This document shows positions 24,054-48,181 of a stretch of DNA of 64,000 bases, one piece after another. Location: NCBI GenBank assembly GCA_036778475.1, contig DAIPSP010000003.1, positions 777 to 64,776 on the forward strand, in the 5' to 3' direction. This DNA is from Rhizobiaceae bacterium (GTDB lineage Bacteria > Pseudomonadota > Alphaproteobacteria > Rhizobiales > Rhizobiaceae). The position numbers and the translations under genes were made by a program. The number at the start of each line of letters is the position of its first letter. Position 1 is the stretch's first letter. A model generated the notes under the pieces. The model made no database searches. It worked only from the letters and a program-made list of their open reading frames with translations, and had not been told where the DNA came from.

Positions 24054-24465
24054 GACGCCGGGCGGCAATTCGCGCTTGCTCGATCAGCCGCAAGCGGTCG
24101 CCGACCGCCTGCCTTCAACCTTTTTGCGAGAACGCGTCGCCCCGGATCGAACTTCAGTGAGATCGGGAAAAAGTGGCGACGGGTGTGGGGTATTGGATAG
24201 GCCGCCGCACCCGCCCTACGTCATTCCAGGGCCGCGGAGCGGACCCGGAATCCAGCGCCGTGACGGTCGGGATCATCGCGCCCGCACCCGCCAACGCCGT
24301 CGAGCCAGTCCTGCACCGACCCCCCTCTGTCCGGCCGGCGTTCGTCACTCGAAAAGCCCATTTTGGGGTTTTTCGTTTGCTGCGCAAACCGCTCCTCACC
24401 CCCCACTCAAGGGAGGAGATCGGCTGTCATTGCCGGCTTTCCACGACGGACGCACGAGAGCGCCT

Positions 24466-25209
24466 TCAACCACGAACAAAATGCCCGCTTGGACCCAAGT
24501 GGATCCCACACTCGACCTTGTCGACGCCCTGCCAGCGGCCGCTTCGTTCGTCCTCGCCGGGTTTCACGGGCTTCGTGCAGGGGCCGCAGCCGATCGACCT
24601 GTAGCCGCGAGCGACAAGCGGGTGCTGAGGCAGGCCATTTGTGCTGATGTAGTTCCTAAGGCTTTCCGGGGTTTCACGGATCAGCGGGTTTATCTTGAGA
24701 TGCTTTCCATCGCGCTCAAGGTAAGGAATGCCCGCGCGGATGCCACCTTGATATCGCTTCCGACCGGTCAACCATCCGTCGAATTCCACCAACGCGTCCT
24801 GCAGTGCAAATGTCTTGCGTATGGTGCAGCACATGTTGGGATCGCGCGACCACAAATTCCCCTTCGGATCCTCGGCAAGCACCATCGCCGCATCGGGCTG
24901 GATCGCCCGAAAATTTCGGATGTCGAGGAATTCACAGACTTGGTCGACGTAGCGCAACGTTTCGGGAAAATGCTTGCCGGTATCGAGGAACAAGACATCA
25001 ATGTTCGGCGACAGCTGAAGCACCTTGTGGAGCAACACGATTGAATCCGCTCCAAAGGACGAAACGAGTGCGACGCGTCCCACTTGGTTGTCCGCCAGCA
25101 AAGAGCCGAGATCAAGATTGTCGTTGGTTATGTAGTCGTCGGCCAGCCGATCAATCAGCTGATCTTCACCGCCCGGTGGCCAAGACTGCCCGCCTCTGTC
25201 AATGTGCAT
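24466..25209 (-). CDS. cysH: assimilatory adenylylsulfate (APS)/PAPS reductase, Fe-S cluster-type CysH
   Basis: ORF 24466..25224 (GTG); the ATG at 25209 is preferred. PP-loop SSFGADSIVLLH, cysteine pairs NMCCTIRK and IGCGPCT (the CC...CxxC pattern of Fe-S APS reductases) and C-terminal catalytic ECGIH. Visibly lower GC than the backbone. Confidence 0.85.
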   Translation of the reverse strand: MHIDRGGQSWPPGGEDQLIDRLADDYITNDNLDLGSLLADNQVGRVALVSSFGADSIVLLHKVLQLSPNIDVLFLDTGKHFPETLRYVDQVCEFLDIRNFRAIQPDAAMVLAEDPKGNLWSRDPNMCCTIRKTFALQDALVEFDGWLTGRKRYQGGIRAGIPYLERDGKHLKINPLIRETPESLRNYISTNGLPQHPLVARGYRSIGCGPCTKPVKPGEDERSGRWQGVDKVECGIHLGPSGHFVRG

Positions 25210-25593
25210 TTGACTCTCTACCACCCCGAAACAATCCAGCTTCTCGACACTGAATGGATGTTTCTATCCACCAGATGCCGATGAGCGAAATTGGCTATTT
25301 TCAAAAAATCGCGTTCTCACAGCAAATCTTATGTGACACTGCGGGAAATATCTTACCCCCGCGATGCATACGCATCACATCACCTGTCCAATTCTTGAGA
25401 GAGGCGGAAAGTGGCGACAAAAAGGCGCATGATGTCAGACGTCAACTGTGAGCCGCGTTTGTCTGGATACTCCCAAGCCGGGAAGTGACCATCATCATCC
25501 GGATCAGACCGCTCAGTTGCCGCGCGCCCAAAGAGCAGATTGCCGATCTGATATGCCACCGACCTTGAACCTGATAGATCAATTGCCGCGTCT

Positions 25594-26400
25594 TCAAGAC
25601 CTACCCCGGGCGATGAACCAGGGATTGGCGAAATCCGAATCGTCGGCCTGGCTGCGCTTGCCATAGACAAAGGCGGTTCCGTCGATGCGCGTTGTCGAGC
25701 CGCCCGCGGCGCGCAGCACCGCGTCGCCGGCGGCGGTGTCCCATTCCATGGTGCGGCCAAAGCGCGGATAAAGATCGGCCCGGCCCGAGGCCAGCAGGCA
25801 GAATTTTAGCGACGACCCGACCGAGACGATCTCGGCGTCCTGATAGCGGCCGATGAATTCGTCGGTCTCGGGCGTGCGATGCGAGCGGCTGGCGACGATG
25901 CGGATGCGATCGGAATGGGCGGCGACGGCCATCGGCCGCCTGTCGCCGTCGATGCGGCCGGCGCTCACCACCGCCTCGCTGGCCGCGCCGGGGCGTCCCG
26001 CATAGAGCACGCCCTGCGCCGGCGCGTAGACGACGCCGACGGCCGGAACGCCGTTGCGCACCAGCGCGATGTTGACGGTGAAATCCGGCCGGCGTGAGAT
26101 GAACTCCTTGGTGCCGTCGAGCGGGTCCACCAGAAAGAACGTCTCGCCGAGCGCCGGCGGCACGCGGCCCGACGACACTTCTTCTTCCGCGACGCAGACA
26201 ATGTCGGGATAGGCAACGCGCAGTCCGGCCAGGATGACCTCTTCCGCCCGCCGGTCGGCTTCGGTCACCGGCGAATCGTCGGCCTTGCGGTCGACCGTTG
26301 CCCCCATCGCATAGACGGCCATGATCTCGGCCCCGGCGGCGAGCGCCAGATCCTCGAACAGCGCGAGCATGGCGGCGTCGGCGTTTCGCGCCTCAGACAT
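25594..26400 (-). CDS. cysQ: 3'(2'),5'-bisphosphate nucleotidase CysQ
   Basis: Inositol-monophosphatase-fold motifs: [34 protein letters not shown]. The start overlaps the cysNC stop by 8 nt. Confidence 0.85.
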
Positions 26401-28297
26401 AGCCGCGTTCCGCCAGCCAGGCCTCGAGATATTCGGTCATTTCCTCCGCCGACTTGCCGCTGGTCTCAAGGTGCACGTCGGCGTGTTCGGGCGTTTCATA
26501 AGGAGAATCGACGCCGGTAAAATTCTTGATCTCGCCCTTCAGCGCCCGCGTATACAGGCCCTTGGGGTCGCGCCTGGCGCATTCCTCGAACGGCGTGTCG
26601 ACAAACACCTCGACGAACTCGCCCTCGCCCATCAGCTCGCGCGCCATGCGGCGCTCGGCGCGGAACGGCGAGATGAACGAGACCAGCACAAGCAGGCCGG
26701 CGTCGGCCATCAGCCGCGCCACTTCGGCGACGCGGCGGATGTTTTCGACGCGATCCTCCTCGGTGAAGCCAAGGTCGCGGTTCAAGCCGTGGCGGACATT
26801 GTCGCCGTCGAGGATGTAGGTGTGGCGGCCTTCCGAATGCAGCCGCTTTTCCAGCAGGTTGGCGATGGTCGACTTGCCAGACCCCGACAGGCCGGTGAAC
26901 CACAGCACCGCCGGCTTTTGCCGCTTCAGCTCGGCCCTCGCCTTCCGATCGACGTCGAGCGCCTGCCAGTGGACATTGGTGGCGCGGCGCAGTGGATGCA
27001 GGATCATGCCGGCGCCGACGGTGGCGTTGGTGATCCGGTCGATCAGGATGAATGCGCCGGTAACGCGGTTGTCGGCATAATTGTCGAAGGCGATCGGATC
27101 GTGCGTCGAAACATTGACGACGCCGACCTCGTTCAGGTCGAGCGACTTCGCCGCTTCATGGCTGAACGTGTTAACGTCTACCCGGTGCTTGAGCTCGGTC
27201 ACCGTCGCGTTCGACTGGTCGGTTTCGGTGCGCAGCAGGTAGGGGCGCCCCGGCATCATCGCGTGCTCGCCGAACCAGACAATGTTGGCGGTGAACTGGT
27301 CGGCGACATGCGGCCGCGCCTCTGGCGACACCAGCATGTTGCCGCGCGACACCTCGACCTCGTCGTCGAGCAGGATCGTCACCGCCTGGCCCTCGCGGGC
27401 GCGCTCGAGGTCGCCGTCCTGGGTGACGATGCGCTTGACGCGGCTCACCTTGCCGGACTTGGCCACGACTACCGCATCGCCGGTCGTGACCGACCCGGCC
27501 GCGATCGTGCCGGCAAAGCCGCGGAAGTCGAGGTTCGGCCGGTTGACATATTGCACCGGGAAGCGGAACGGGCTGTCGACGGATTCCGAGGGCAGCGGCA
27601 CGGTCTCGAGGTGATCGAGCAGGGTCTTGCCGTCATACCAGTCCATCCGCCCGGACCGGGTGGTGACATTGTCGCCGTAGCGCGCCGACAGCGGGATCGG
27701 GATCAGAGTTTCAAAACCGAGATCCTTGGCGAACGAACGGTAGTCCTCAACGATCTGGTCGAACCGCTCCTGCGAGAACCCGACCAGGTCGATCTTGTTG
27801 ACCGCCAGCACAACGTTCCTGATGCCCAGCAGCGAGGCGATGAAGGAATGCCGGCGCGTCTGCCGCAGCACGCCTTGGCGCGCGTCGACCAGCACGATGG
27901 CGAGGTCCGCCGTCGACGCGCCGGTCGCCATGTTGCGGGTGTACTGCTCGTGGCCGGGCGTGTCGGCGACGATGAATTTCCGCTTCGACGTGGCGAAGAA
28001 GCGGTAGGCGACGTCGATGGTGATGCCCTGCTCGCGCTCGGCCTCGAGCCCGTCGACCAGCAGCGCGAAATCGATCTCGTCGCCGGTGGTGCCGTGCTTT
28101 TTCGAGTCCTTTTCGAGCGCGGCGAGTTGGTCCTCGAAGATCAGCTTGGTGTCGTAGAGCAGCCTGCCGATCAGCGTCGACTTGCCGTCGTCGACCGAGC
28201 CACAGGTGAGGAAGCGCAGCATGGTCTTGTCTTCCTGGGCTTTCAGGAAGCTGCGGACGGCCGTAACGGTTTCGGCATTGGGATCGGTGTGCTTCAT
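26393..28297 (-). CDS. cysNC: bifunctional sulfate adenylyltransferase subunit 1 / adenylylsulfate kinase (CysN-CysC, NodQ-type)
   Basis: GTPase domain ([33 protein letters not shown]) plus a C-terminal APS kinase ([23 protein letters not shown]...[11 protein letters not shown]). Confidence 0.95.
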
Positions 28298-29202
28298 CAG
28301 AAGTATCCTTCCCGCTTCTTCTTTTCCATCGAGCCGGCTTCGTCCTTGTCGATCGCCCTGCCCTGCCGTTCGGAGGTGCGCGCGATCAGCATTTCCTGGA
28401 CAATCGCCTCGAGCGATGCGGCTTCGGACTCGATGGCGCCGGTCAGTGGGTAGCAGCCGAGTGTGCGGAAGCGCACCATGCGCTCCTCGACCTTTTCGCC
28501 TGGCCGCAGTTCCATGCGGTCGTCATCCTTCAGGATCAGCATGCCGTCACGCTCGACCACCGGCCGCTTTTTGGCGAAGTAGAGCGGCACGATCGGAATG
28601 TTCTCCTGCAGGATGTACTGCCAGATATCGAGCTCGGTCCAGTTCGACAGCGGGAACACGCGGATCGATTCTCCGGGCGCGACGCGGGTATTGTAGATTT
28701 TCCACATTTCCGGCCGCTGGTTCTTCGGGTCCCAGCCGTGCTGGGCGTTGCGGAACGAGAAGATGCGCTCCTTGGCGCGGCTCTTCTCCTCGTCGCGGCG
28801 CGCCCCGCCGAAGGCGGCGTCAAAACCGTATTTGTCCAGCGCCTGGCGCAGGCCGACCGTCTTGGTGATGTGGGTGTGCACGTTCGACCCGTGCACGAAC
28901 GGGCCGATGTCCTGTTCGATCGCGTCGGGGTTGATGTGCACAAGCAGGTCGAAACCGAGATCCCTGGCCATCCGGTCGCGAAACGAGATCATCTCGTTGA
29001 ACTTCCAGCGGGTGTCGACATGCAGGAACGGGAACGGCGGCTTGGCCGGATAGAAGGCCTTCATCGCCAGCCGCAGCATCACCGACGAATCCTTGCCTAT
29101 TGAATAGAGCATCACCGGCTTGGAGAAGGTCGCAGCAACCTCGCGGAAAATGTGTATCGACTCGGCTTCGAGCCGTTGCAGGTGCGACATGCGCGCAGTC
29201 AT
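28297..29202 (-). CDS. cysD: sulfate adenylyltransferase subunit 2 (CysD/NodP-type)
   Basis: ORF 28297..29271; start taken at the ATG at 29202 ([48 protein letters not shown]-loop). The ATG at 29190 is an alternative. The stop shares one base with the cysNC start. Confidence 0.95.
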
Positions 29203-29270: not shown

Positions 29271-29288
29271 TTGATCGACAACGATCAA
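29271..29288. promoter_or_regulatory. perfect 7-bp inverted repeat TTGATCG-ACAA-CGATCAA about 70 nt upstream of cysD
   Basis: Read directly. It lies at the point where the sequence turns AT-richer. Confidence 0.25.
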
Positions 29289-29702
29289 AAGCATCTAGGC
29301 GTCAGTCTTTTGGAGAATGAAATTTCGCCCGCTCTTCAAGGCAGACTGCATTTTTTGCGCAAGTAGTCGAAGATCATCCGGATCAGCATCAATTTGCGCA
29401 GCGCGGCGTCTCCTTCGACTGGAATACCCGCCGAAAACCAGGCTGCGGCGCTGCAAATTGCATCGATCCCGATCATCAGGCGACCCAGACGTGACGGGGC
29501 CGCAATAGACCGGACATAAGAAGCTGTGCTAGGCCCAAAAAACTGCACGCCGCTGCGGCCACCGTTCGCGCCGGTTGCGGAGACTGTGCGAGTTGACCAA
29601 ATGCCCAATAAACTAGGACGCGCAGTGGATGGCATTCCGGAACCGCCTCATCGGCCGCAATCGCCTAAGCCGGAGATATCCGCAGATCGCCAAGGCCAGG
29701 AC

Positions 29703-30242
29703 ATGTCTCGTCTTTATCGCAAATGGCTTGACCCAAGAACTCAAAATGCGCTGGGCGGCTTTTTCATTGGGCTGACCATGTTCGTCCTGATCGCATGGTT
29801 CCTGCAGCAGATAGGCTTCCTCTATGTCCATACCCAGTCCAGCGGCTTCCAGCAGCTAAAAATAGTCAATGATTCTATGGTGGAGGTTCGCCCGACAGTC
29901 AGAAAGGCGATCTCGCAACTCCGCGTCGCCGAAGCTGAACTGCTTGAGGCATTGTCGGCTGGAAATGCGCCTTGGCGAGCCCAAGCTACGAAGCGTTATG
30001 TCAACATCAGGGAGGCGTTCCCCGACCTGTTTGACAGGATCGCAAGTGAAATGCCTCGCAATTCAGCAATCTTGTTCAGACTTTCACCGGATCAGCGTGA
30101 CGGCTACAAGATTGTCATGCACAGTGAAATCTGTTCTGCAGTCGCGTTGGAAAACCCTAAACTTGTCGACCCGACCCTCGATTTCTACGGAACTTTCTGC
30201 AGATATTTCGGGTTTTGGAACCCAGCCGGGCAACACCTCTGA
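29703..30242 (+). CDS. hypothetical single-pass membrane protein
   Basis: In ORF 29526..30242. From the ATG at 29703: MSRLYRKWLDPRTQNALGGFFIGLTMFVLIAWFLQQIGFL (one TM) followed by a helical soluble domain. No family recognised and the start is uncertain (29601 also possible). Confidence 0.4.
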   Translation: MSRLYRKWLDPRTQNALGGFFIGLTMFVLIAWFLQQIGFLYVHTQSSGFQQLKIVNDSMVEVRPTVRKAISQLRVAEAELLEALSAGNAPWRAQATKRYVNIREAFPDLFDRIASEMPRNSAILFRLSPDQRDGYKIVMHSEICSAVALENPKLVDPTLDFYGTFCRYFGFWNPAGQHL

Positions 30243-30384
30243 GGCCGCTGTGCCGGGACTTTCGGCAAACCGCGAAACAAGCAATACACTCCTGGCATGG
30301 CGACACGCTGCACAGGAAGTTGCGGAAGAACGACATATGATGCGCGTGCGTTGTCATGCGCAGGACGAATAAGGACAATATCTT

Positions 30385-31269
30385 ATGGCGACCAGTGATC
30401 CCACTTCAGCATCGACTCAGCTTTATGTGCGGCTGATGGATCTGATTGCTCGTCTTCCCGAAGATACAGTGGCATCGCGGCAGCGGCTCTATTTGCAGGT
30501 GCGCAACCGGTTCGAAGGGCGACCGGAGTCGCAACGCAATCAACTGGAGGGCGTAATCGCGCGAATCGAGCGTGAGAAGACGGCCATGCCAAACGATACG
30601 TCTGTATCGAGCGGCAAAGACCATGAGCAAGCAACGACGAGCGCGACGGCGCCAACACCAGCCGCTGCGAAAAAGACCGCATTGCTGTTGCCCGCGCTTG
30701 CGGCGGTAGCTGCGATTGCAGCCGCGGGCGGGTACTTCCTCTTGAAAATGCCCGACACCAACTCGGACTTCTCTCGCGGCCTCGACGGATACACGTTCAA
30801 TGTCAACACTCTGGTCCAAGCCCCGGACACCGGCAAAGCCTTTGACGCGCGCACCATCGGGAACGATGGCTTGATTGAGGTTCGCGGGCCCTTGTCCATA
30901 TTCGGCATCAAGGCAATTCCGGTCGACCCTTCCAAGCGATATGTCGTGGCGGCGCGTGTGCGCGTAACGCAGGACGATCCCACAAGCGCGGGCGCCATGA
31001 CCCATATTGGCGTGGCGACTTTCGACAGGGAGGGAAATCTCCAGACCGACCCGCCCGGAGCTCATCGCTATGCTGCGGCCCCTGCCCGTGTCCTCACCGT
31101 CGCCGACGGTTGGATTGATCTGGTCGGCGAGATTTCCGGCACCGGCAACAGCAACCATCATCAATTCCGGGAGGGCACCGCGTCCGTCAGGCCAGTGGCC
31201 ATCCTCAATGCTGGCAGCCCCGGCGCGGTGACGGAAATCACGTCTCTTTCGTTCACGGAGGTGAAGTAG
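30385..31269 (+). CDS. hypothetical type-II membrane protein: cytoplasmic helical N-terminus, Ala/Thr-rich linker, one TM, extracytoplasmic beta-rich domain (paralogue of 39974..40675)
   Basis: TM ALLLPALAAVAAIAAAGGYFLL. The C-terminal ~150 aa share an ordered motif set with ORF 39974..40675 (PVD, YV..RV, D+EGN, PGxHRY, SGxGNxNxxQFR, TAxxRxV). AAGGA precedes the ATG. Confidence 0.6.
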   Translation: MATSDPTSASTQLYVRLMDLIARLPEDTVASRQRLYLQVRNRFEGRPESQRNQLEGVIARIEREKTAMPNDTSVSSGKDHEQATTSATAPTPAAAKKTALLLPALAAVAAIAAAGGYFLLKMPDTNSDFSRGLDGYTFNVNTLVQAPDTGKAFDARTIGNDGLIEVRGPLSIFGIKAIPVDPSKRYVVAARVRVTQDDPTSAGAMTHIGVATFDREGNLQTDPPGAHRYAAAPARVLTVADGWIDLVGEISGTGNSNHHQFREGTASVRPVAILNAGSPGAVTEITSLSFTEVK

Positions 31270-31439
31270 CGCCGGTATTCCTGCTGCTTCACTCCGACCG
31301 ATCTGTCGATCAGGCCACCGACCGGCCGGTGGAGCTCTTACGCCACAGCTTTGATCAGATCGGGTTTCCAGAAGAAACTTCGATACCCTTGGCGTCGAAC
31401 GGTCTGGCGAACCTATCCCGCGCTACTCGCGGCAGCGGG

Positions 31440-32780
31440 TCATCTCCATGGGAAGATTGAAGGAACACGGCCGATCAGTTGACCGGGGCGCAGCCGCATT
31501 CGCACGGGCGAAAGGAACGGCAAGCCGAGCAGAAATTCGGAACCGGGGGTCGCGTAAAGTTTGAGCGGCGTGTTGTAGTCCGCGTATTGAGATGGTTCTG
31601 CAAAGAGGGCAAAGACTGCATTTCTCCAGCCGTCGGCATCCGTCAAAATGACATCTTCAGTTGCCGGGGCTCCGTCGACAAACAGTTCCGCACTACCTGG
31701 AACATGAGCCAGGGCAATGCTGCCGCTGACGACTCTCAGGTGGCAGCCGAAGCTTGCAATCGGCAACAGCGCGGCCGATCGCATCGCAAACGGAGAATAA
31801 CGCGTCACGCCGGCTGAAACCAAAGGCGACACGATTCCGGATCCGGCCGTCACTTGGAGCAGGTGGAACTCGGGACCGAAACGCCGCGGCGTTCCGCTTG
31901 CCTTGATCCGGTTGATGAGGTCCGAGACGGTGGCGGGCAATGCCGCCGCCACGCCTCCGTTGGTCGAATTATTGTTGGTGAATTTGCCACCGGAAACAAA
32001 GACCGCGCCGTTGTAGGCCGTCATCCAGTTTGGCGCAACGTAGGCCGACGCCGCCAATCCGACCGGCTCCGGAGACCCTGCAAAACGGCCGCCGTCCTGC
32101 AGCAGATTGAACATGGGGCCCTCGGCGACAGAACTCGTCGGGAACGACAGCCCTCCGCCCGGAGCGACGCGCAGCGCTTCGGTCCAGGTGCTGCCATCGG
32201 TGCTGACTTTGATCTGGAGATCGTCGCTTCCGGTCAGACCGATTTCGGCGCGGGCGGAGAAACCGGTCTGCAGCACAACGCTCCCCGTATCGCCCGAACT
32301 TGCCTTGTTGATCGCAACGCGATGGCTGCCGCCCGCGTGGTTGAACAATGTGGCGGGCGCACTCACAGTCAGCCTATTGCTTGCATCGGCGCTCGCGTTT
32401 ATGCCGACAAGCTCAACGTCCTGGAATTCCTTGCGGGTTTCGAGCAAGTCAATCCATCCGGCGGCCGTCCAGACCATGTGCGTCTCAGTCGCGGCGCTCC
32501 AGGCGCGCCACCCAGGGCTGGGCGCATAATAGCTCCAGCCACCGTCTTCGAACGCGGCAATCTGGCCGTCCCTGCCGGACCAGGCGCCAGTGGCGCTTTC
32601 TGCAACGAGGTGGCGATCTCCCTTTACCGGGTCGGCTGGCGGCGCGGTCCTGTTGTGATCACGGACGGTCAGTTGAACAAGGGCATCGAGCATCCGCAGC
32701 GAATCATTGTGCGTCACGTGTTTTTGCGCTTGTGACGGAAGAAGATATGGCAGGTGAAGATTGGGGGTGAGTTCGGACAT
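31440..32780 (-). CDS. DUF2793-type protein (phage tail-fibre-like N-terminus) with a long Gly/Ser/Ala-rich beta C-terminal region
   Basis: ORF 31440..32885. AGGAG precedes the ATG at 32780. MSELTPNLHLPYLLPSQAQKHVTHNDSLRMLDALVQLTV...ATGAWSGRDGQIAAFEDGGWSYYAPSPGWRAW matches my memory of the DUF2793 N-terminal signature. This needs HMM confirmation. Confidence 0.7.
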   Translation of the reverse strand: MSELTPNLHLPYLLPSQAQKHVTHNDSLRMLDALVQLTVRDHNRTAPPADPVKGDRHLVAESATGAWSGRDGQIAAFEDGGWSYYAPSPGWRAWSAATETHMVWTAAGWIDLLETRKEFQDVELVGINASADASNRLTVSAPATLFNHAGGSHRVAINKASSGDTGSVVLQTGFSARAEIGLTGSDDLQIKVSTDGSTWTEALRVAPGGGLSFPTSSVAEGPMFNLLQDGGRFAGSPEPVGLAASAYVAPNWMTAYNGAVFVSGGKFTNNNSTNGGVAAALPATVSDLINRIKASGTPRRFGPEFHLLQVTAGSGIVSPLVSAGVTRYSPFAMRSAALLPIASFGCHLRVVSGSIALAHVPGSAELFVDGAPATEDVILTDADGWRNAVFALFAEPSQYADYNTPLKLYATPGSEFLLGLPFLSPVRMRLRPGQLIGRVPSIFPWR

Positions 32781-32917
32781 TCGCTGGCTCCTGTGCTGCG
32801 GAGTCCATCGTAACCCGCCCAGCGCATGGGTGGACAAAGCGCCGCATTTTGCTAAGTACCAGCGTCCGTTTCGGGACGGTTGCATGTCCCTGGGGTCAAC
32901 CCTGAATGGAGAACGAC

Positions 32918-33823
32918 ATGAATGCCAAGCGCCTCGTCGTCACTGGCGCGACTGGCTTTGTCGGTAAGAACCTGCTCGATGTCCTGCTCGCCAGAGGCTT
33001 TCATGTTCGCGCCCTGGTTCGAAACAACGCATCGATTCCCCAAGGCGCGGAAATTGCAACTGATTGGAGTGACAGCGGCTTGCGGCAGGCGATGAACGCT
33101 GCCGACGCCATCATCCACCTTGCCTCGCGTAACCACCGCTCCGGTGCTGAGATGTCGGACGACAGCGCATATCGCGAGGATATTCTGAACCTGTCCGAGC
33201 GGCTTGCCGAAGCCGCCGCCGCCTCAAATGTCGGCAAGTTCATCTATCTCAGTTCCATCAAGGCCCGGAGCGCCAACGACGACGCCGGAGGGCGCCCGAC
33301 ACCCTACGCGCGATACAAGCGGGAGGCTGAACTGGCCATTACCGCACGGCTGGAGGGATCGGGTTGCGACCTTGTGATCCTGCGCCCTCCCCTCGTCTAC
33401 GACCTTGATGCGAAGGGCAATTTCGGCACGCTCGTGAAGCTGTCCCGAAAGGGTATCCCTGTGCCCATCAGGGCTTCATCGGGAAAACGTGCGATGATCT
33501 CACGCGACAATCTCATCGATGTCATTGCCACCGTGGCTGCAGCAAACGAAAAGTCGTCAGGCGATCACATCTACGAGGTCTGCGATGGAAAGGCCTACAC
33601 TTTGGAGGACCAGATTCGGGCGATCGCCTCGAGGCTCGGGCGTCCGGCGCGTATCCTGCGGTTGCCCGACTCAATATTCGACGCCGCGATATCACGACTC
33701 GCAGGTCCAGACGCCCTCTCCGCCATTGTTGATCACCTCGAAGTATCCAACATCGACATAGAACGCGACTTCCGCTGGAAGCCTTCACATTCGTGGCTTG
33801 CGTCAAAATCTGGGCCAACCTGA
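32918..33823 (+). CDS. NAD-dependent epimerase/dehydratase family SDR (CapN/WbjF-like, candidate UDP-4-keto-6-deoxy-HexNAc reductase)
   Basis: ORF 32906..33823. GGAG lies 6 nt before the ATG at 32918. KRLVVTGATGFVGKNL Rossmann motif and YARYK (YxxxK). Sits immediately upstream of the WbuB-like GT and the initiating transferase, as in cap5LMN / wbjF-wbpL arrangements. Confidence 0.8.
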   Translation: MNAKRLVVTGATGFVGKNLLDVLLARGFHVRALVRNNASIPQGAEIATDWSDSGLRQAMNAADAIIHLASRNHRSGAEMSDDSAYREDILNLSERLAEAAAASNVGKFIYLSSIKARSANDDAGGRPTPYARYKREAELAITARLEGSGCDLVILRPPLVYDLDAKGNFGTLVKLSRKGIPVPIRASSGKRAMISRDNLIDVIATVAAANEKSSGDHIYEVCDGKAYTLEDQIRAIASRLGRPARILRLPDSIFDAAISRLAGPDALSAIVDHLEVSNIDIERDFRWKPSHSWLASKSGPT

Positions 33824-33827
33824 ACCG

Positions 33828-35093
33828 ATGCGCATCCTCTTCGTCAGTCAATATTTCTATCCTGAAAACTTCAGCAACAACAAGATCGTGTCCAAGCTGG
33901 TCGAGCGCGGACACGAAGTTGAAGTTATTACAGGGATCCCCAACTACCCTGCTGGAAAATTCTTCGACGGGTACGGTTTGTTCAAGCGACGCAAGGACAC
34001 TTACAATGGGGCCACTGTCCGCCGTGTGCCGATTTTGCCGAGAGGCCAGCGTTCACTATTTCTCCTGGCCAATTACGCCAGCTTTGTTCTCAGTGCGTCG
34101 CTTCGCTGCCTGTTTTTGCGCAGACGTGCATTCGACGTCGTATTTTCCAGCGCGCCATCGCCGGCCACTATCGCCGTCCCGGCAATCGTCGCGGCAAAAC
34201 GGATGGGGGTGCGTCACGCATTCCTGCTTCAAGATTTGTGGCCGCAAACACCGATCGCAATCCTGAAGCTGAAAAACCGGTCTGTCATCCGCCTGCTCAC
34301 GGCGGCGTGCAAACAGATCTATGAACGGGTCGACGTTATGGTCGTGCCATCGCGCGCGTTTATCCCCGAGATCGAAGCGATTGCTCCCGGGCTACGGTAT
34401 TTCTATTTTCCCAACAGCATCGAGGACTTTCACAGGCCTCAGGCGAAAAATCCGGCCCTTCGTGGCGAACTCGGACTGGGCGAAAGTGACTTCGTGATCG
34501 GATTCGCCGGGAACATGGGCGAAGCACAGAACATCGACGCGATCATCGACGCGGTGAAGATTGCGTCAGATCCGCGCATCAAGATACTCATGGTGGGCGA
34601 CGGAAGGCACCGGAAAGCGCTCGAAGCGCGCATTGCCACGCTCGGGCTGCAATCGCACTTCCGTTTTGTTGGGTCCGTGCCACCTGAGGATGTGCCGCGC
34701 TATCTCGGATCGGCTGATGCAACGATCCTGACACTAGCGTCTGACGCGGCATTTGTCGGCGTCATCCCGTTTCGCCTGCAAACCTATCTTGGCTGCGGAA
34801 AACCGATCCTGGGCCATGTCAGTGGCGAGAGCGCCAGCATTATCGCCGAGGCTCAATGCGGCCTGGTTTCCGATCCGTCTGACAATGCCGCTCTTGCCGC
34901 CAATCTGGTCAAGATGGCGTCACTCCGAGAGGACGAACTTGAGCAGTTTGGACTGGCCGCTCGTTCATACGCCGTGAACGAGTTCTCCGAAGCCAGGATT
35001 TTCGACGGGATCGAAAAGCTGCTTGCCGAGTTGGCAGCCAACGAGCTACCGCCTGAATCCACTTCTGTCGCTGGCGCACACCCCGGAAGATGA
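33828..35093 (+). CDS. GT4 glycosyltransferase, WbuB/CapL/WcaI-like (candidate L-FucNAc transferase)
   Basis: MRILFVSQYFYPENFSNNKIVSKLVERGHEVEVITGIPNYPAGKFFDGY is the characteristic WbuB/WcaI-type N-terminus. The ATG at 33828 follows the upstream stop by 4 nt. Confidence 0.85.
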   Translation: MRILFVSQYFYPENFSNNKIVSKLVERGHEVEVITGIPNYPAGKFFDGYGLFKRRKDTYNGATVRRVPILPRGQRSLFLLANYASFVLSASLRCLFLRRRAFDVVFSSAPSPATIAVPAIVAAKRMGVRHAFLLQDLWPQTPIAILKLKNRSVIRLLTAACKQIYERVDVMVVPSRAFIPEIEAIAPGLRYFYFPNSIEDFHRPQAKNPALRGELGLGESDFVIGFAGNMGEAQNIDAIIDAVKIASDPRIKILMVGDGRHRKALEARIATLGLQSHFRFVGSVPPEDVPRYLGSADATILTLASDAAFVGVIPFRLQTYLGCGKPILGHVSGESASIIAEAQCGLVSDPSDNAALAANLVKMASLREDELEQFGLAARSYAVNEFSEARIFDGIEKLLAELAANELPPESTSVAGAHPGR

Positions 35094-35099
35094 CGTGAT

Positions 35100-35657
35100 A
35101 TGAAACGCCTGCTTGATATGATAGCCGCCGCTGCCGGGCTGGTCGTTGCACTGCCGGTGATCGTCGTCTTCTCAGTTCTGATCAGGAAGCAGTCTGGCGC
35201 CTCCGGGATATTCGCCCAGGATCGGGTCGGGAAAAACGAGAGAGTGTTCCGATGCTACAAGCTCCGAACCATGCGCCAGGATACGCCAGATCTGCCGACG
35301 CATATGGCCGGGAGCGCAAGCGTCACGCCGATCGGAAAATTTCTGCGTCGATATAAGGTGGACGAGCTTCCGCAATTGTGGAACGTCGTGAAAGGCGAGA
35401 TGAGCCTTGTCGGGCCTCGGCCTTGCCTGCTCAATCAAACCGAGTTGCGAGAGGAACGACGCTCGCGCGGGGTTTTCGACGTGCGGCCAGGCATAACCGG
35501 GCTGGCCCAGATCGAGGGCATCGACATGTCCGAACCCGCGCGGCTGGCAGAAAAAGACGCCGAATACGTGCAACGACAGACACTTGCGTCAGATCTTGCG
35601 ATCATCGTTCGCACGATTATCGGCGGCGAAGGGCGTGGCGATCGGGTCAGGCCGTAG
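35100..35657 (+). CDS. small bacterial sugar transferase (PglC/CapM/WbaP-C-terminal type polyprenyl-phosphate sugar-1-phosphate transferase)
   Basis: One N-terminal re-entrant helix ([25 protein letters not shown]), YKLRTM and [22 protein letters not shown] motifs. Confidence 0.9.
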
Positions 35658-35800
35658 ATCAATTCGGCGACCACTTAAGCGCTCTGTCGGCCTGTCGCGG
35701 AAATGTGCGGCAACACAGAGACGGCTGTTTGGATCGAACGGTCTGCCCGGGAATACGACCTCAAGCATTCCCGTTGCCTGACCCTGTCAGCTGCGGCGGC

Positions 35801-37081
35801 TTACTTGACGTCGGCGTCATCCACCTGTTTGCGTTCGCCAGGCGGCCCTATGAGTTCGTTGCGCCAGGCAGTGAACAACTGATAGATCAGCAACCCCTTC
35901 CATACCGCAAAAACTGCAAGTGTCGTGCAGGCCGCCCCGACCGCTCCATATTTTGGAACGAGGACGAAATTGAGCGCGATGTTCACGAACGCCGCCGCGA
36001 TGGCAATGATCGAATAGACACGATGCTTGCCCTGCATCTGCGCGAAAAGAGCCAGCGGGCCTGTCGCCGTGTGAAAGAAATAAGCCATGGCGATGATGCG
36101 GATCGGCCAGAGCGCGTTGTTGGCCGCGTCGCCAAACACCAGCGTTGCGATTTGCGGGTAGATGATCAGCACAAGCGCCGGCACCAGCGCCAGGCCGCTC
36201 GCCATCAAACTGGCCTCCACCAACAGCTGGCGGCTCTTTGCGTGATCGCGCTCGATCCGGGCCGCCGAGAATCGTCCGCCATAGAGCGGCAGGATCAATG
36301 ACTGGCCGAGCATCAGCGTCGCGCCCAGCCTCACCCCCATGGCGTAGTGCGCCGTCTGTTCCGGCGTCGACAATGCCGACAACATGATGATGTCGCCACG
36401 GGAAATGATCACATTGCCAGCCTCCCCCGCGATCAGAGGCATCGTGTAGGCATTCCAGGCGCGGGTGACATAGCTTGGCCGGGCGGCCCGGACTTCATCC
36501 GGAACAGAGATCCACGCCCAGATCACCGAGAGGACACAGATCACCGCCGTTGCAATTGCATAGGCAAGGCATGCCTCCCAAAAGCCGCCTACAGTGAACA
36601 CCGCGAAAATAGCGATCGTTACGATCGGCAGGGCGACCTCATCTGGAAGGATTGAACTCAGCGGCATATGAAGTCCGCGAAACACCCCTTTCGACACCAT
36701 GATCACGGCCTGAAACGGCACTACGGCCAGACCTAGCCTGAATGCGGCAATCTGAGCCGGATCGCTGAATATCAATGGCGTCATCAGGTAGATCGGAATC
36801 GCCACCGCGACCGACAGAAGGATCGCCACCAGGTTCGCCTGGATCAGCGCTCCGCGAAATCTTTCCCAACGCTTGCGCAGGCCATACCGCGAGATCATCA
36901 AAACGATCCCGTGCATCCAGCCGCCGTTTGTCAGCGTGGCCAGGACCAGAAAACACGTCTGAAACAGAGCAAAATAGCCGTAGTCCTGCTCACCGATCTG
37001 GCGCACCAGAAGGCCATGCATGACAACGACGGCAAGCCCCCCGGCAACCTTGAATGCGGCCAGCCGGATGGCAGTTCGCAT
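35801..37081 (-). CDS. wzx: polysaccharide flippase (Wzx/MOP-superfamily-like)
   Basis: 426-aa protein that is hydrophobic throughout (about 12 predicted TM by eye), located in the glycan locus. Assigned by topology and context, not by a sharp motif. Confidence 0.7.
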   Translation of the reverse strand: MRTAIRLAAFKVAGGLAVVVMHGLLVRQIGEQDYGYFALFQTCFLVLATLTNGGWMHGIVLMISRYGLRKRWERFRGALIQANLVAILLSVAVAIPIYLMTPLIFSDPAQIAAFRLGLAVVPFQAVIMVSKGVFRGLHMPLSSILPDEVALPIVTIAIFAVFTVGGFWEACLAYAIATAVICVLSVIWAWISVPDEVRAARPSYVTRAWNAYTMPLIAGEAGNVIISRGDIIMLSALSTPEQTAHYAMGVRLGATLMLGQSLILPLYGGRFSAARIERDHAKSRQLLVEASLMASGLALVPALVLIIYPQIATLVFGDAANNALWPIRIIAMAYFFHTATGPLALFAQMQGKHRVYSIIAIAAAFVNIALNFVLVPKYGAVGAACTTLAVFAVWKGLLIYQLFTAWRNELIGPPGERKQVDDADVK

Positions 37082-37280
37082 CTCAAATCCTCTCGTCTAG
37101 GTTGGGCCAGCGATTGCACGCCGGCAAATCGACCGGCCCGCGGATGGTCAAGACGACCTGGGAAGGGCCGCCTTCTATCCGAAGCCATCGGATGCGTCGA
37201 CCCCGATGCAGCTTCCGCGGCCCGCCAGAATCTTCTTTTTCAGATTGTCATGCCGATCCGTCAAACGCTAATAACGCTTG

Positions 37281-38438
37281 ATGTATGACAGACACCTATC
37301 CCGAAGAAGCTTACTGGCGGGGGCGCTGGCGGTTCCGTTCCTGCGCGGCGCTGCGGTCGCTGGCGAGAACCTCGGCGCCATCATTGTCGGGTGCGGCAAT
37401 CGCGGCGCGCAACTCGCAACGATGATGGCGGCGATGAGCGAGCCGCCGGCGCCGGTTGCGTTCATCGACACGGTCGTCGGGAAAGCGGCAGCCTTGCGTG
37501 ACAGGATTTCGCCTTCCGCACCGGTCTATGCAAGCCTCGATGCGGCGTTTGACGCGGGCGTCTCCGCCCAGACGGCGATTGTCGCTACCTGGAACAGCGA
37601 ACATTTGCCTGTCATCGAGCCACTCCTTGCCAAGGGCTACCATGTCTTCTGCGAAAAGCCGATGACGGAGAGCCTCAGCGAAGCCAGGCGCATGGTCGAA
37701 CTGGACCGAAAGTATGGCGGAAGAATCCATATCGGGCTCGAGTTTCGCTACGCCCCGCTCTATCGACGAGTGAAAGAGATCATCGACAGCGGGCGGATAG
37801 GCGACGTGAAGTACATGGCGGCGGCCGAGTTGCGCGGCGACTGGTTCCGCTATTTTCCGGACGACGATGCGCGTGAGAACCAGACGAACTGGCGGTATTT
37901 TGAGAAAACGTGTGGCAACTCGATCCTCGAAAAACTGTGCCACGACTTCGACATCCTGACCTATGTCGGCGGCAAGACCCCGTCACGGGTCATCGCAAGC
38001 GGGGGCAAGGCAGTCTATACCAACCGGGAAACGGACGATCACGCGTCGATCATCCTGGAATACTCCGACGGAGCGGTAATGGATTGCTCGTTTTCGCTGT
38101 TTTCATCCGCCCCGCGCGACGAAACGATCATCATGGGAAGCCGCGGAACTCTGGCGTTCCGCCGTGTCGGGCAGGAGATTTCGGTCTGGAACAGCCTCAA
38201 ACCCAAAGGCAAGCCGGACGAGTTGATCTCGCTTGCCGTGAGCAAGCGCGACGTCGACAATCATTCCGGAACGATGGAAAGCCTGGTCGCGTTCTTTTCC
38301 GGTGTGCGTGACAGGGGGGCGATTTACCCCTCGCCCGAACAGGCCTGGATGACGACGGCCATCTGCTGCGCCGCGCATCATTCGGCTCGCAACCAGTCTG
38401 CACCGGTTGATCTCAGAGTTGAGCCCTATGTGATCTAA
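37281..38438 (+). CDS. Gfo/Idh/MocA family oxidoreductase with an N-terminal twin-arginine (Tat) signal
   Basis: MYDRHLSRRSLLAGALAVPFLRGAAVAGE (S-R-R-x-L-L, h-region, AVA|G) followed immediately by Rossmann GAIIVGCGNRGAQ and the family EKP motif (VFCEKPMTES). ORF-track start is TTG 37278; the ATG at 37281 is preferred. Confidence 0.8.
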   Translation: MYDRHLSRRSLLAGALAVPFLRGAAVAGENLGAIIVGCGNRGAQLATMMAAMSEPPAPVAFIDTVVGKAAALRDRISPSAPVYASLDAAFDAGVSAQTAIVATWNSEHLPVIEPLLAKGYHVFCEKPMTESLSEARRMVELDRKYGGRIHIGLEFRYAPLYRRVKEIIDSGRIGDVKYMAAAELRGDWFRYFPDDDARENQTNWRYFEKTCGNSILEKLCHDFDILTYVGGKTPSRVIASGGKAVYTNRETDDHASIILEYSDGAVMDCSFSLFSSAPRDETIIMGSRGTLAFRRVGQEISVWNSLKPKGKPDELISLAVSKRDVDNHSGTMESLVAFFSGVRDRGAIYPSPEQAWMTTAICCAAHHSARNQSAPVDLRVEPYVI

Positions 38439-38942
38439 TTTCGACCAGTATCTGTGATCTCCCCAACGCCAAACGCCCTTGATGGAGCGTTCGAGCCATG
38501 CCGGAGCCGAATGCCGATGTCCGGCCGGCCCCACTGAGCGGAGTCTGGATTGCGAACCCGTCTGATACTGGCGACACCGGCTCCGCTTGGACTCGTGGCA
38601 TCCCTGCAAGCACTCGGCAGTCCGACATATATGCGGCAGCCTGTGACACTGCCATGGCGTATCTCTGATCGAGAACACGGAGTCGGTCGCAGTCCTACGG
38701 CAATCTGCGCGCAATTCTGCGGCAATGTGCGTGCGCCATCCCGCGAGATTTCCGCAAACTGTGCAATCCGCACCAACTGGCGCACGATCAGAGGAAGCAA
38801 TTCGTGAATCACAACCTCCTTCTCAATGGTAGTGAATCAATTCAAAATTGGGCCCGGCACGTCCTGATTTCAGGCCGGGAAACGTGTATCTATTGTCGAT
38901 GCAACGCTGGCTCCCAAGCCTGACAGTTTCCGAGAGAAATCG

Positions 38943-39965
38943 TTGGCAGACCAAGTGACAGAAATCGTGATCGAAAGGAAGAATAAGAGTCGGCTTGAAA
39001 AGCCGCATAGTTTTGTCCTAGGCGCCCTTTTCAAGATATTCGTCGCAATAGGAACGTGGTATTTTTCTGTTGCCCTTCTGGAAGCATATGAATTCGGAGA
39101 TCAAGCTATATATCGCCGACTCTATGACCAACTTATCGGCGTAAAGATAGAAGATATCGGATACTATCAAGAATCCATTACAACAAGCGCCGACCCTGCA
39201 TTCGGCCTACTGATGTGGCTTGGTTCAAATTTTACTACATTAAGTCATACATATTTTATTTCTATATTTAACGTTCTTTTTGTTGTTTTGATAGTTGAAT
39301 ACCTAATAAGAAACCGAGCAACGCTTTCAATATCCCTCTTCTTGACCAACTATTACCTAATCGTGCTTTTGACCGGGGCGGAACGGTTGAAATTCGCGTA
39401 TATGGCAGCGATCGCCGCCGCTCTGACGGCAGGACGAATTCGATCGCTGATTTATCTGGCGATTTCTACCGCCTTCCACATCCAGATGCTCATCCTATAC
39501 GGCGCGTTTGCAACCGGGTGGCTGACAGCAGGAATGGGGGGCCTGGCGCGCAATGCGGAAGGCCAAGCAATTCGTAGATACTGGTTCGTATTCCTCTTGG
39601 CTGCAGCAGGAGCTGCTGCGATCATTTTCCGCTATGGTTCGCTAGTGGCATTCAAGATAAGCGCCTACTATGCAAATCTCGATCCCGCAGAAACCTTTGA
39701 TCTTGTTCTTGTACTAATTGTCGGTTTGGTGGCTCTAAGGTCCAAGGCGCGCTTTTTCGTCGAGATCGTTTTTTTGATGGCCGTCGCTATGGTGGTGGGA
39801 GACGAGCGGGTCTCGATGATCGGAATCACACTTCTGGCCTACAATGCCATCGAGCAGCGGAGGACGATGCATCCAGCCATAATTCTGATTCTTGGTTATT
39901 TCTCCTACAAATCAATAGCGTTTGTTCAACGCATATTTGATGTCGGAACTGGTTTTGGGACATAG
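38943..39965 (+). CDS. wzy: EpsG/Wzy-like polysaccharide polymerase (integral membrane)
   Basis: 340 aa with about 10 TM segments. Markedly AT-rich codon usage, as is typical of wzy genes. The first loop EAYEFGDQAIYRRLYDQL resembles the EpsG family. Start (TTG 38943) uncertain. Confidence 0.55.
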   Translation: MADQVTEIVIERKNKSRLEKPHSFVLGALFKIFVAIGTWYFSVALLEAYEFGDQAIYRRLYDQLIGVKIEDIGYYQESITTSADPAFGLLMWLGSNFTTLSHTYFISIFNVLFVVLIVEYLIRNRATLSISLFLTNYYLIVLLTGAERLKFAYMAAIAAALTAGRIRSLIYLAISTAFHIQMLILYGAFATGWLTAGMGGLARNAEGQAIRRYWFVFLLAAAGAAAIIFRYGSLVAFKISAYYANLDPAETFDLVLVLIVGLVALRSKARFFVEIVFLMAVAMVVGDERVSMIGITLLAYNAIEQRRTMHPAIILILGYFSYKSIAFVQRIFDVGTGFGT

Positions 39966-39973
39966 GAAAACTG

Positions 39974-40675
39974 TTGGCGAAAATTTGGCGTTATGCGGCA
40001 TTTTCGGCGCTGGCATCGGCGATGCTTGTGACAATCGGAGTTGGGGCACGCTACCAATACTCTGAAACAGTCGTTTGCGAGCCTGAAGGGACAGGGACGG
40101 CTCTGCAGATTTTTGCAGCCTTTGCCGGTTTCTATGTGACCAAAGACTGCGTTTTTGCAGAAATGAATGAAGGTGAAGCGCCATTCAAGCTCTTCGAAAA
40201 TGAATCCGGCACACCCATTGGCAAGTTTGAAAGCCGCATCAGTGTAAATCGGCAACATATCAGGGTATTTGGGCCGGGGCAGATTTTTACGGATTTGATG
40301 CCGGTGGACCTCGACGCCGACTATGTCATGGAAATTCGCGTCTCGGCCCCCAGGGTTAGCCCAACCATTGGAGAGGACCCAATCGGACCAGGATCGACCA
40401 AGTTCTTGGCCGGAATAGTGACGATTGATAAGGACGGAAATGTATTGACGTCGTCGCCAGGTCGACATCGCTACGGCTTGGGACTTCAGACTCTGGTCGC
40501 AAGCAACGGCCAGTGGCGGCTTTTTCGGTCAACGTTCTCAGGCGTTGGCAACGACAATTCTCAACAGTTCAGACCAGCAACCGCCTTCATTCGCGGTGTG
40601 ATTTTCGCCAATTTTGAGAGCGCGGAAAGTGCAATAATGGATATTGATTACATACGCATCTGGAAAAAGAGATAG
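39974..40675 (+). CDS. hypothetical signal-anchored protein, paralogue of the C-terminal domain of 30385..31269
   Basis: TTG start 9 nt after the wzy stop (AGGAAAA upstream). N-terminal anchor AAFSALASAMLVTIGVG. C-terminal motifs: PVDLDADYVMEIRV...DKDGN...PGRHRYG...SGVGNDNSQQFRPATAFIRGV. Confidence 0.6.
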   Translation: MAKIWRYAAFSALASAMLVTIGVGARYQYSETVVCEPEGTGTALQIFAAFAGFYVTKDCVFAEMNEGEAPFKLFENESGTPIGKFESRISVNRQHIRVFGPGQIFTDLMPVDLDADYVMEIRVSAPRVSPTIGEDPIGPGSTKFLAGIVTIDKDGNVLTSSPGRHRYGLGLQTLVASNGQWRLFRSTFSGVGNDNSQQFRPATAFIRGVIFANFESAESAIMDIDYIRIWKKR

Positions 40676-40811
40676 TGCCCGCCGGGAATTGAAGGCTCCG
40701 CATCGATGGCCATCCTTCTGCGAGGATCAACCATCTCCGCCGCGATCATGCTGTACTCATTTGCGATTGCGTTCGGGCATATCTTGCTTCTTTTGCGTGG
40801 AAAACGCGATG

Positions 40812-41774
40812 CTATGCGGACAGGAACCACCGCAAGGTCGCGTCCAGTCCGGCCTTGAGCGGCGTTCGCGCCTGCCAGCCCAACATTTTGCGGGCCTTCG
40901 ATGTGTCCGAGAAATTTCGCATCACATCTCCCGCCCTGCGTTCAGAATTGACGATTTCCGGCGCCTGCAAACCGGCAGAAATAAATGCTTGCGTCAGCGC
41001 CAGCGCCAGTTCGTTGACGGTCGTTTCCTTAGCTGTAGCGATCTGAAAAATCTCACCCGCGACACCATCCCGGGTGGCCGCGGCAAGCACCGCGTCGACC
41101 AAATCATCGATAAAAATGAAATCGCGTGTCTGCCCTCCGTCTCCGTAGATTTCCCATCTCTCACCTGTCATGGCCGCCTTGATGAACTTGGCGACCACGC
41201 TGGCCTTGTGCGTCGACAGCGGCCCGTAGACATTGCCGAAGCGCAGCGCGACGGTTTCCACACCAAAGCAGCGCCAATACGCGGAGCAATATCCTTCGCC
41301 GGCAAGCTTGGATGCGCCATAGGGCGACGCGGGCCTGGGCGCCATTTCCTCGTGGATCGGCGGTGGATTGTCACCGACCGGCGCACCCGAAGATGCAAAT
41401 ACGAAGCGCTTGACGCCCGCGTGACGGGCTGCTTCGAGGGCATTCAACGTGCCCATGACGTTGACACGGCAATCCATGTGCGGATCGGCTACGGACGGCG
41501 CGACACCGGTATTGGCCGCAAGATGCACAATGCAGTCGGCGCCGGTCGCGCCTTGCGCCAACCGATCCGCGTCGAGAATGTCACCCATGATGACAGCTAC
41601 GCGCCCGACGGCTTCGTGAGAAACGCCTGATGCGTACAAGGCCGAGAACAGGTCAACATCAGAACTGGTTGAGAAATTGTCGAAGACAACGATTTCGTTG
41701 TCGGGGTCTTTCAACAGCCGAATGCAAAGGTTGCGGCCAATGAACCCGCAGCCGCCCGTTACCAGATATTTCAC
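40812..41774 (-). CDS. NAD-dependent epimerase/dehydratase (extended SDR, UDP-hexose 4-epimerase-like)
   Basis: MKYLVTGGCGFIGRNL, SSGAPVG, SPYGASKLAGE (YxxxK). The start overlaps the upstream GT4 stop (ATGA). Confidence 0.85.
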   Translation of the reverse strand: MKYLVTGGCGFIGRNLCIRLLKDPDNEIVVFDNFSTSSDVDLFSALYASGVSHEAVGRVAVIMGDILDADRLAQGATGADCIVHLAANTGVAPSVADPHMDCRVNVMGTLNALEAARHAGVKRFVFASSGAPVGDNPPPIHEEMAPRPASPYGASKLAGEGYCSAYWRCFGVETVALRFGNVYGPLSTHKASVVAKFIKAAMTGERWEIYGDGGQTRDFIFIDDLVDAVLAAATRDGVAGEIFQIATAKETTVNELALALTQAFISAGLQAPEIVNSERRAGDVMRNFSDTSKARKMLGWQARTPLKAGLDATLRWFLSA

Positions 41775-42949: not shown

Positions 42950-43364
42950 CCAATACGTCTGGCCTTGATTGTCAGGACGTCACATCCCGGTCAACCCGGC
43001 AACTGCGGATAAACATGCGACCTGCAGTCGAGGTTGCGTGGCTCGTTGGAAATATCTGCGAATTTATCACATTCGAGAGAACTCGACGAGCGCGCCGGCG
43101 GGGCAATACGCTGCGCGTCCCAGCCCTGCCGGAGGGCCTATCTTCCACAAGGCGTCGGCCAACAAGGCACACGACAAAAGGAAGCCCGGATGCAGAGATT
43201 GTCGACACAACGGAGGGCAATTCGAAAACGATCAACTGCCTGTTTGACGGCTTGTCACCTGCGGCGCCGACGTCCTTGTTGTCCGGTTGCTTGTTTGTTG
43301 ACTAGTGCAGCGCTATTCACCATAGACATGCCAATTCAAATCAAACTCGGTATTGGCGCCTAGG

Positions 43365-46976: not shown

Positions 46977-46988
46977 ATCCGGTCCTGC

Positions 46989-48149: not shown

Positions 48150-48181
48150 CTGCGATCAAACTCCACTGGAAGCCCCGAAAG

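Follow-up and report, generated by a model that had tools for sequence, protein, structure and literature searches.

Do the sulfur-activation genes that lie against a surface-glycan locus in a member of the Rhizobiaceae form a private supply for that locus, or do they belong to the general sulfur metabolism of the cell? The question is raised by a 64,000-nucleotide stretch of DNA from a Rhizobiaceae bacterium (NCBI GenBank assembly GCA_036778475.1, contig DAIPSP010000003.1, positions 777 to 64,776), here called the window, which corresponds to contig C3 of a 3.22-Mb assembly (176 contigs, 90% completeness; genome label G000). Four adjacent genes are concerned: cysD and cysNC, for activation of sulfate to adenosine 5'-phosphosulfate (APS) and on to 3'-phosphoadenosine 5'-phosphosulfate (PAPS); cysQ, for a phosphatase acting on 3'-phosphoadenosine 5'-phosphate (PAP); and cysH1, for a predicted APS reductase. 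A first-pass annotation of the window proposed that together they provide a private source of sulfite and PAPS for the neighboring glycan locus. A composite explanation is favored here, with a probability of roughly 0.6, in which cysD-cysNC-cysQ is a shared activation operon and the laterally acquired cysH1 would supply sulfite for an SQD1-like enzyme encoded in the glycan island. The proposal of a private supply thus fails for cysD-cysNC-cysQ, which is sole-copy, core and of standard form, and survives in a narrower version for cysH1, which is lateral and co-occurs with the SQD1-like gene.

All four genes lie where the first-pass annotation had placed them, on the minus strand and with profile scores above the respective cut-offs (Table 1). 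The cysD open frame reaches 29271, its likely start being the ATG at 29202, in agreement with the NF009214 alignment. In CysNC the APS_kinase domain (PF01583, Pfam) covers residues 462-610, and the GTPase and kinase motifs are intact, with P-loops at residues 33 and 469 and with LDGD, FISPF and KGLY retained. The proposed overlapping operon is likewise borne out, the cysD stop and cysNC start sharing 1 nt and cysNC and cysQ overlapping by 8 nt. The PAPS_reduct domain of CysH1 is full length (PF01507, 132 bits), and the predicted cluster cysteines (CC...CGPC) and the C-terminal ECGIH were found as described earlier; translation probably begins at the ATG at 25209, and a 247-residue form is on record. 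The profile TIGR02055 gives 178 bits, under its cut-off of 235, for CysH1 and for the second reductase of the genome, CysH2, alike.

The cysH1 gene is placed on a lineage-specific insert of 1.5 kb, because nucleotide homology to relatives breaks on both sides of it. In blastn comparisons, homology to the relatives G008, G003 and G010 stops at 24046-24072 and returns at 25600-25616, and in G003 the two flanks of the insert lie 29 bp apart. Neither the insert nor a counterpart of cysH1 was found in any of 10 congeners, each of which (10/10) has exactly one CysH, 46-48% identical to CysH1. Base composition also differs: guanine-plus-cytosine (GC) content is 57% in cysH1 and 51% in the spacer that separates it from cysQ, against 65.3% for the genome, and GC content at third codon positions (GC3) is 0.68 in cysH1 vs. 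0.82-0.88 in cysQ, cysNC and cysD. The AT-richer gap of 370 nt reported by the first-pass annotation is this spacer, measured here at 369 nt and 50.7% GC. Within it (25225-25593) no convincing promoter or terminator consensus was seen, the scan performing no better than on shuffled sequence, and no DNA homology was detected in the relatives compared; an Rfam search of 23500-33000 returned no match. The cysH1 region is not an assembly artefact, since contigs assembled from independent metagenomes run across the insert. One of them, 4520 nt long and from wastewater, matches 22500-26666 with zero differences, and a 1390-nt piece across 24370-25759, spanning the cysH1-cysQ junction, occurs in two further metagenome runs from other studies. 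More widely, 24100-29300 is near-identical in wastewater, activated-sludge and bioreactor metagenomes of many separate studies, which points to the habitat.

The ancestry of the two reductases was compared in a maximum likelihood tree of CysH, built on tblastn-aligned segments with support from the Shimodaira-Hasegawa approximate likelihood ratio test (SH-aLRT). CysH2 clusters with cysI-linked CysHs from its own genus and family, whereas CysH1 falls in a separate clade (97% SH-aLRT support) with its best relatives, several Rhodobacterales and the CysH of genus g132. The closest relatives of CysH1 in databases are only 54-60% identical and come from Mesorhizobium camelthorni, metagenome-assembled genomes (MAGs) of Aquamicrobium and Nitratireductor, and Rhodovulum. 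A plasmid search with the 1.5-kb insert recovered only cysH genes in canonical cysI operons, on Rhodobacterales and Sphingomonas replicons (65-75% identity over 9-22% of the query), and these matches give no clue to the donor. Taken by its sequence and surroundings, cysH1 is a laterally acquired, lineage-specific second APS reductase gene (a xenologue) of otherwise ordinary sequence.

The second reductase gene, cysH2, has a conventional setting. The end of contig C95 and the start of C159 overlap by 55 identical nt, and when joined they read cysG-DUF2849-cysI (NIR_SIR)-cysH2-DUF934, an intact operon; the sulfite reductase gene cysI itself spans the contig break. The same gene order is annotated in public Rhodobacterales replicons. 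CysH2 carries the motifs CC, CFPC and ECGIH and is 48% identical to CysH1, and the single CysHs of the congeners are its orthologues by position and in the tree. In its predicted role cysH2 is the vertically inherited housekeeping reductase gene, so that G000 has one activation system and two APS-type reductases. The first-pass annotation had suggested looking for a second, housekeeping cysHDN set elsewhere in the genome; no second cysD or cysN was found in the 90%-complete assembly, and the second cysH that does exist is itself the vertical housekeeping gene.

The candidate consumer of additional sulfite lies in the glycan island. UDP-sulfoquinovose synthases, known as SQD1 in plants, SqdB in bacteria and Agl3 in Sulfolobus, use UDP-glucose and sulfite and share the signature [ST]MG...Yx3K (PMC8987622). 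The gene of this type that the first-pass annotation had noted 15 kb downstream is present at 44465-45613, 15.3 kb from the cysD start and 19.2 kb from cysH1, and is the only SQD-type gene in G000. Its product keeps the signature (TMG and YHTTK), and on the NCBIfam equivalog profile NF041015 it scores 450 bits, under the cut-off of 575. It differs from the usual sqdB of the family. In a sample of 400 family genomes, about 167 have an sqdB only 40-45% identical to it, and only 4 have a gene that is 62-68% identical. Within the genus, 8 of the 10 congeners carry only canonical sqdB (42-44% identity) and none carries the glycan-type SQD, so that both cysH1 and the glycan-type SQD are confined to G000. 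The canonical sqdB is also missing from G000 and from two further members of the genus with small genomes, G008 and G005; this lineage may be one without the sulfoquinovosyl lipid.

An association between cys genes and this type of SQD locus recurs far outside the genus. A scan of species-representative genomes yielded 80 SQD loci from many phyla, with 61-76% identity to the island enzyme. In most of them a homologue of the adjacent PseB-like dehydratase adjoins the SQD-like gene and the surroundings are glycan-type; in about half, a homologue of the island's extended-SDR (short-chain dehydrogenase/reductase) epimerase (approximately 44-61% identity) is nearby, often directly downstream. One or more of cysH, cysD, cysN, cysC and cysQ lie within 10 kb of the SQD gene in 13 of the 80 loci, most on the same strand and several adjacent to it. 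Chance would give about 1 of the 80, an estimate made here from 1-2 cys loci per 3-7 Mb genome that ignores relatedness. Examples include a Verrucomicrobiota MAG with cysH 18 nt upstream of the PseB-like gene, Histidinibacterium aquaticum with cysH 72 nt downstream of the SQD gene, and a Rickettsiales MAG with cysD-cysNC 94 nt upstream; further cases come from Saprospiraceae, Chloroflexota, Cyclobacteriaceae, Desulfobacterota and Gilvimarinus. A second cysH elsewhere is present in Histidinibacterium and in a Litorilinea MAG, and in two other MAGs the linked cysH is the only one. Among the Rhizobiaceae themselves, G219 has two cysH genes, one of them approximately 1 kb downstream of its SQD gene on the same strand, and in G216 a distance of 4 kb separates the SQD gene from cysQ-cysD-cysNC. 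In a control set of canonical sqdB loci of the family, phylogenetically narrow, none of 20 had a cys gene within 10 kb. In the tree the CysHs linked to SQD genes are polyphyletic, supported branches separating at least three origins, and repeated recruitment is therefore favored over the spread of one mobile unit. The comparison of 13/80 with 0/20, together with the island sulfotransferases of three or four congeners described below, supports a functional link of the cys genes to the glycan loci, as predicted from gene content.

These observations can be assembled into a metabolic scheme. The cysD-cysNC-cysQ operon would make APS, a branch point from which one route leads to sulfite, by way of CysH2 and then CysI for housekeeping purposes, and another leads through the fused kinase to PAPS for sulfotransferases, with CysQ clearing the by-product PAP. 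In the genus the operon marks a constant edge of a surface-glycan island whose content varies. Into this setting cysH1 came laterally, on the 1.5-kb insert directly downstream of cysQ, and the most likely role of its product would be an APS-to-sulfite step independent of the cysI-cysH2 operon. The sulfite from CysH1, whose specificity for APS is predicted from its motifs and whose expression may be coordinated with that of the island, would then supply the SQD1-like enzyme, which in turn would build a sulfonated sugar into the surface glycan. This specific connection between CysH1 and the SQD1-like enzyme is held with slightly less than even odds, below the composite explanation of which it forms a part.

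Several observations weigh against the composite explanation. A distance of 19 kb separates cysH1 from the SQD-like gene, and cysH1 is outside the island, with the cys operon in between. Its co-occurrence with a glycan-type SQD within the genus amounts to one genome, and two of the four other carriers of such a gene in the family (G217 and G012) have no cys gene linked to it. The sole-copy CysH of genus g132 lies within the CysH1 clade, and no special function is marked by sequence. Eight congeners with canonical sqdB have a single cysH, and an extra reductase is therefore not required for sulfoquinovose synthesis. The 90% completeness of the assembly also counts on this side. Much of this would fit a different explanation, namely that CysH1 belongs to sulfur assimilation, simply as a redundant APS reductase or as one under different regulation, perhaps serving as a back-up that increases the flow of sulfite toward cysteine, and that its proximity to the island is coincidental. 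A gene with ordinary motifs, inserted beside the cys operon and belonging to a clade that holds sole-copy housekeeping CysHs, is what such an explanation would lead one to expect, as is the sufficiency of one cysH in the congeners with canonical sqdB. Against it stand the restriction of both cysH1 and the glycan-type SQD to G000 within the genus, and the recurrence in unrelated lineages of an extra or adjacent cysH by the same cassette and never by canonical sqdB (0/20). A merely redundant reductase is regarded as the less likely explanation.

Could the entire block cysH-cysD-cysNC-cysQ instead be a paralogous set of the NodPQ kind, dedicated to the glycan, with a housekeeping set elsewhere? 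The fused kinase, the presence of cysQ, the position of the block against the island and the 69% identity of Sinorhizobium/Ensifer plasmid NodQ to CysNC would all agree with this. Copy numbers argue strongly to the contrary. Six-frame searches of the whole 90%-complete G000 assembly gave one copy of CysN/CysC, one APS kinase and one TIGR01331 match above cut-off for CysQ. The PAPS_reduct genes number three (cysD, cysH1 and cysH2 on contig C95), of which the window's cysD is the sole CysD-type match. No second cysD, cysN, APS kinase or CysQ was detected in that assembly, nor a Sat-type ATP sulfurylase; an extra set beside housekeeping cysDN, as expected of NodPQ-type genes, is not seen. The patchy distribution of an accessory element is also lacking, as cysNC is single-copy in 10/10 same-genus genomes (84-91% identity) and the operon occupies the same chromosomal site in the three compared. 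When the window's proteins were mapped onto 60 kb around cysNC in G008, G003 and G010, the left-flank genes were followed directly by cysQ-cysNC-cysD (72-95% identity) with no cysH between, cysD being 86-95% and cysQ 72-80% identical and both syntenic. The GC3 values of the three genes match the core genome. Identity of CysNC declines from the congeners (84-91%) through Mesorhizobium plasmid copies (78-79%) to Sinorhizobium/Ensifer NodQ (69%), a ranking by identities only; NCBI labels the matches at 85-86% as Mesorhizobium sp. MAGs. The first-pass annotation took the fused kinase with a PAP phosphatase as a "NodPQ-style" sign of dedicated supply, and this cannot be upheld: fused CysN/CysC is the ordinary chromosomal form throughout the family, and the layout is therefore no marker of a dedicated copy. 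Because it is the sole set found, is syntenic in the three genomes compared and has a cysNC that is single-copy in all ten congeners, cysD-cysNC-cysQ is assigned to shared housekeeping; in its predicted function it is the sole, vertically inherited, core sulfate-activation operon and not a private glycan copy. The idea of a private block is already close to refuted and is considered very improbable. It is equally improbable that cysH1 is a recent neutral insertion without a role and heading for decay, as might be imagined for a small, isolated, low-GC insert with no promoter recognized in the gap, given that its frame is intact with every catalytic and cluster motif present and that identical sequence is found in metagenome contigs of separate studies.

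A shared operon may still have a connection to the glycan island through PAPS. Fe-S type CysH reductases use APS directly. As both reductases of G000 are predicted to be of this type, the conservation of the kinase and of CysQ implies that PAPS serves other purposes. Searches for three sulfotransferase families (PF00685, PF03567 and PF13469) found many such genes in the genus, several of them inside the island adjacent to cysD. In G010 and G001 a Sulfotransfer_2 gene (95 bits), flanked by genes for GT2 and WsaF-like glycosyltransferases, is found 7.6 kb from cysD; in G002 the distance from cysD to a Sulfotransfer_3 gene (48 bits) is 5.3 kb, and G009 has a weak match. In the window itself no sulfotransferase of the three families was found, five of its island ORFs (open reading frames) matching no family, and in G000 as a whole there are two weak Sulfotransfer_2 genes, both on other contigs. 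A PAPS link between operon and island is plausible at the level of the genus, because congeners carry sulfotransferases in the same island, and the adjacency of operon and island may well be functional at that level without making the operon private. In G010 and G001 the sulfotransferase gene and an adjacent 599-aa ORF (G010 L184 8415-11165; G001 L185 4064-6746) have GC3 values of 0.53-0.55 vs. 0.79-0.89 for their neighbors, and this pair looks like a foreign sub-cassette within the island.

A broader and more tentative proposal is that the site beside cysD-cysNC-cysQ is a hot spot for sulfur-modified glycans, into which different species plug either PAPS-dependent sulfotransferases or a sulfite-dependent cassette of the SQD1 type. 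Under this proposal the laterally acquired cysH1 would be the last piece of an independent pathway that leads from sulfate, by way of APS and sulfite, to a sulfonated sugar at the cell surface, a "sulfite branch" that would be the counterpart of the "PAPS branch" of NodPQ and would have been recruited independently in several phyla. This proposal is considered less likely than not.

The closest known system is the sulfate-activating complex of Mycobacterium tuberculosis, which comprises CysD-CysNC, the APS reductase CysH, CysQ and sulfotransferases (PMC4373884, PMC3141025). In both organisms a single cysD-cysNC set includes a fused APS kinase, APS branches either to an Fe-S CysH or to PAPS and sulfotransferases, and CysQ removes PAP. 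Unlike M. tuberculosis, G000 has two predicted APS reductases and an SQD1-like enzyme as a possible third sink. The rhizobial NodP/NodQ system shares with the window the layout of a CysD-like protein and a CysN-APS kinase fusion, at 69% identity to plasmid NodQ, as well as the idea of activating sulfur for a sulfated surface or signal glycan. The NodPQ genes are extra plasmid-borne copies beside housekeeping cysDN, however, whereas those of the window are sole-copy, chromosomal, core and syntenic. The canonical alphaproteobacterial operon cysG-DUF2849-cysI-cysH-DUF934 is the exact home of cysH2; CysH1 shares fold family and motifs with the CysH of that operon, but its gene stands by itself, with neither cysI nor DUF934 beside it, and the protein, 48% identical to CysH2, falls in a different clade. 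Finally, the island enzyme resembles SQD1 in aligning over its full length (432 bits) and keeping TMG...YxxxK, and differs from canonical sqdB products in being 40-45% identical to them, under the NCBIfam equivalog cut-off, in its location in a Wzx/Wzy glycan locus and in its coupling to a PseB-like dehydratase and an epimerase.

Individually the four cys genes encode well-known enzymes, and the activation operon serves ordinary housekeeping. Of wider interest is a clean natural case in which an accessory APS reductase was gained together with a predicted sulfite-dependent sugar enzyme, in a pairing that recurs in unrelated bacteria. As predicted from genomic context, the pairing points to a sulfite supply reserved for sulfonated surface glycans. 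No description of such a supply was found, and none of the papers searched names sqdB, cysH and sulfite together. Within one genus, moreover, the genes for sulfate activation are joined at a conserved chromosomal junction to a glycan island of variable content in which sulfotransferases are frequent, which suggests that surface polysaccharides bearing sulfur groups are widespread among these Mesorhizobium-like bacteria of wastewater. The presence of both cysH1 and cysH2 in one genome offers an easy genetic handle on these questions.

Table 1. Features of the sulfur-activation block, the insert and the adjoining glycan island (window coordinates).
Feature	Coordinates	Strand	Basis or remark
Lineage-specific insert bearing cysH1, 1.5 kb	24073..25599		Homology break vs. 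relatives
cysH1, accessory Fe-S type APS reductase (by sequence)	24466..25224	-	NF002537, 237.8 bits (cut-off 154)
cysQ-cysH1 spacer, 369 nt, AT-richer, part of insert	25225..25593		GC 50.7% vs. 65.3% for the genome
cysQ, 3'(2'),5'-bisphosphate nucleotidase (PAP phosphatase)	25594..26400	-	TIGR01331, 298.5 bits (cut-off 228.8)
cysNC, CysN GTPase with fused APS kinase, 634 aa	26393..28297	-	NF004035, 1072 bits (cut-off 715)
cysD, sulfate adenylyltransferase small subunit	28297..29202	-	NF009214, 537 bits (cut-off 413), alignment from ORF residue 23
Variable surface-glycan island	29272..54429		Between cysD and conserved gene 54445-55239; GC 58-59%
320-aa extended-SDR epimerase	40812..41774	-	Epimerase family, 189 bits; third frequent cassette member
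PseB/FnlA-like sugar-nucleotide dehydratase	43353..44468	+	Polysacc_synt_2, 317 bits; 4-nt overlap with SQD1-like gene
SQD1/SqdB-like, glycan-type, predicted sulfite-dependent sugar-nucleotide synthase	44465..45613	+	432 bits to Arabidopsis SQD1 structure 1qrr, residues 2-381

The island that begins beyond cysD (Table 1) encodes Wzx, Wzy_C, a GT4 glycosyltransferase, a sugar transferase, and FnlABC-like and WbpM-like proteins. Different glycan genes occupy the same site to the right of cysD in G008, G003 and G010, where both flanks are conserved, and in G008 the core genes return with the homologue of 54445-55239. GC content in the window is lowest within the island, in a patch at 38943-40675 (46.7% at 39-40 kb) whose two ORFs match neither Pfam nor NCBIfam.

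Two further observations concern the region to the left of the insert. At 22959-23105 the contigs of the four metagenome runs compared replace 145 bases by the same 24 bases; the variant lies inside or overlaps a ROK-family regulator gene (21916-23136), and since the shorter anchor is only 20 bases it may come from a relative. Farther left, an ORF of 1043 aa at 9379-12510 is a candidate glgA-pgm fusion. It is matched over only approximately 550 residues in G003 and G010, while in G008 one frame matches all 1043 residues at 90% identity, and an assembly error specific to G000 is therefore not the source of the fusion.

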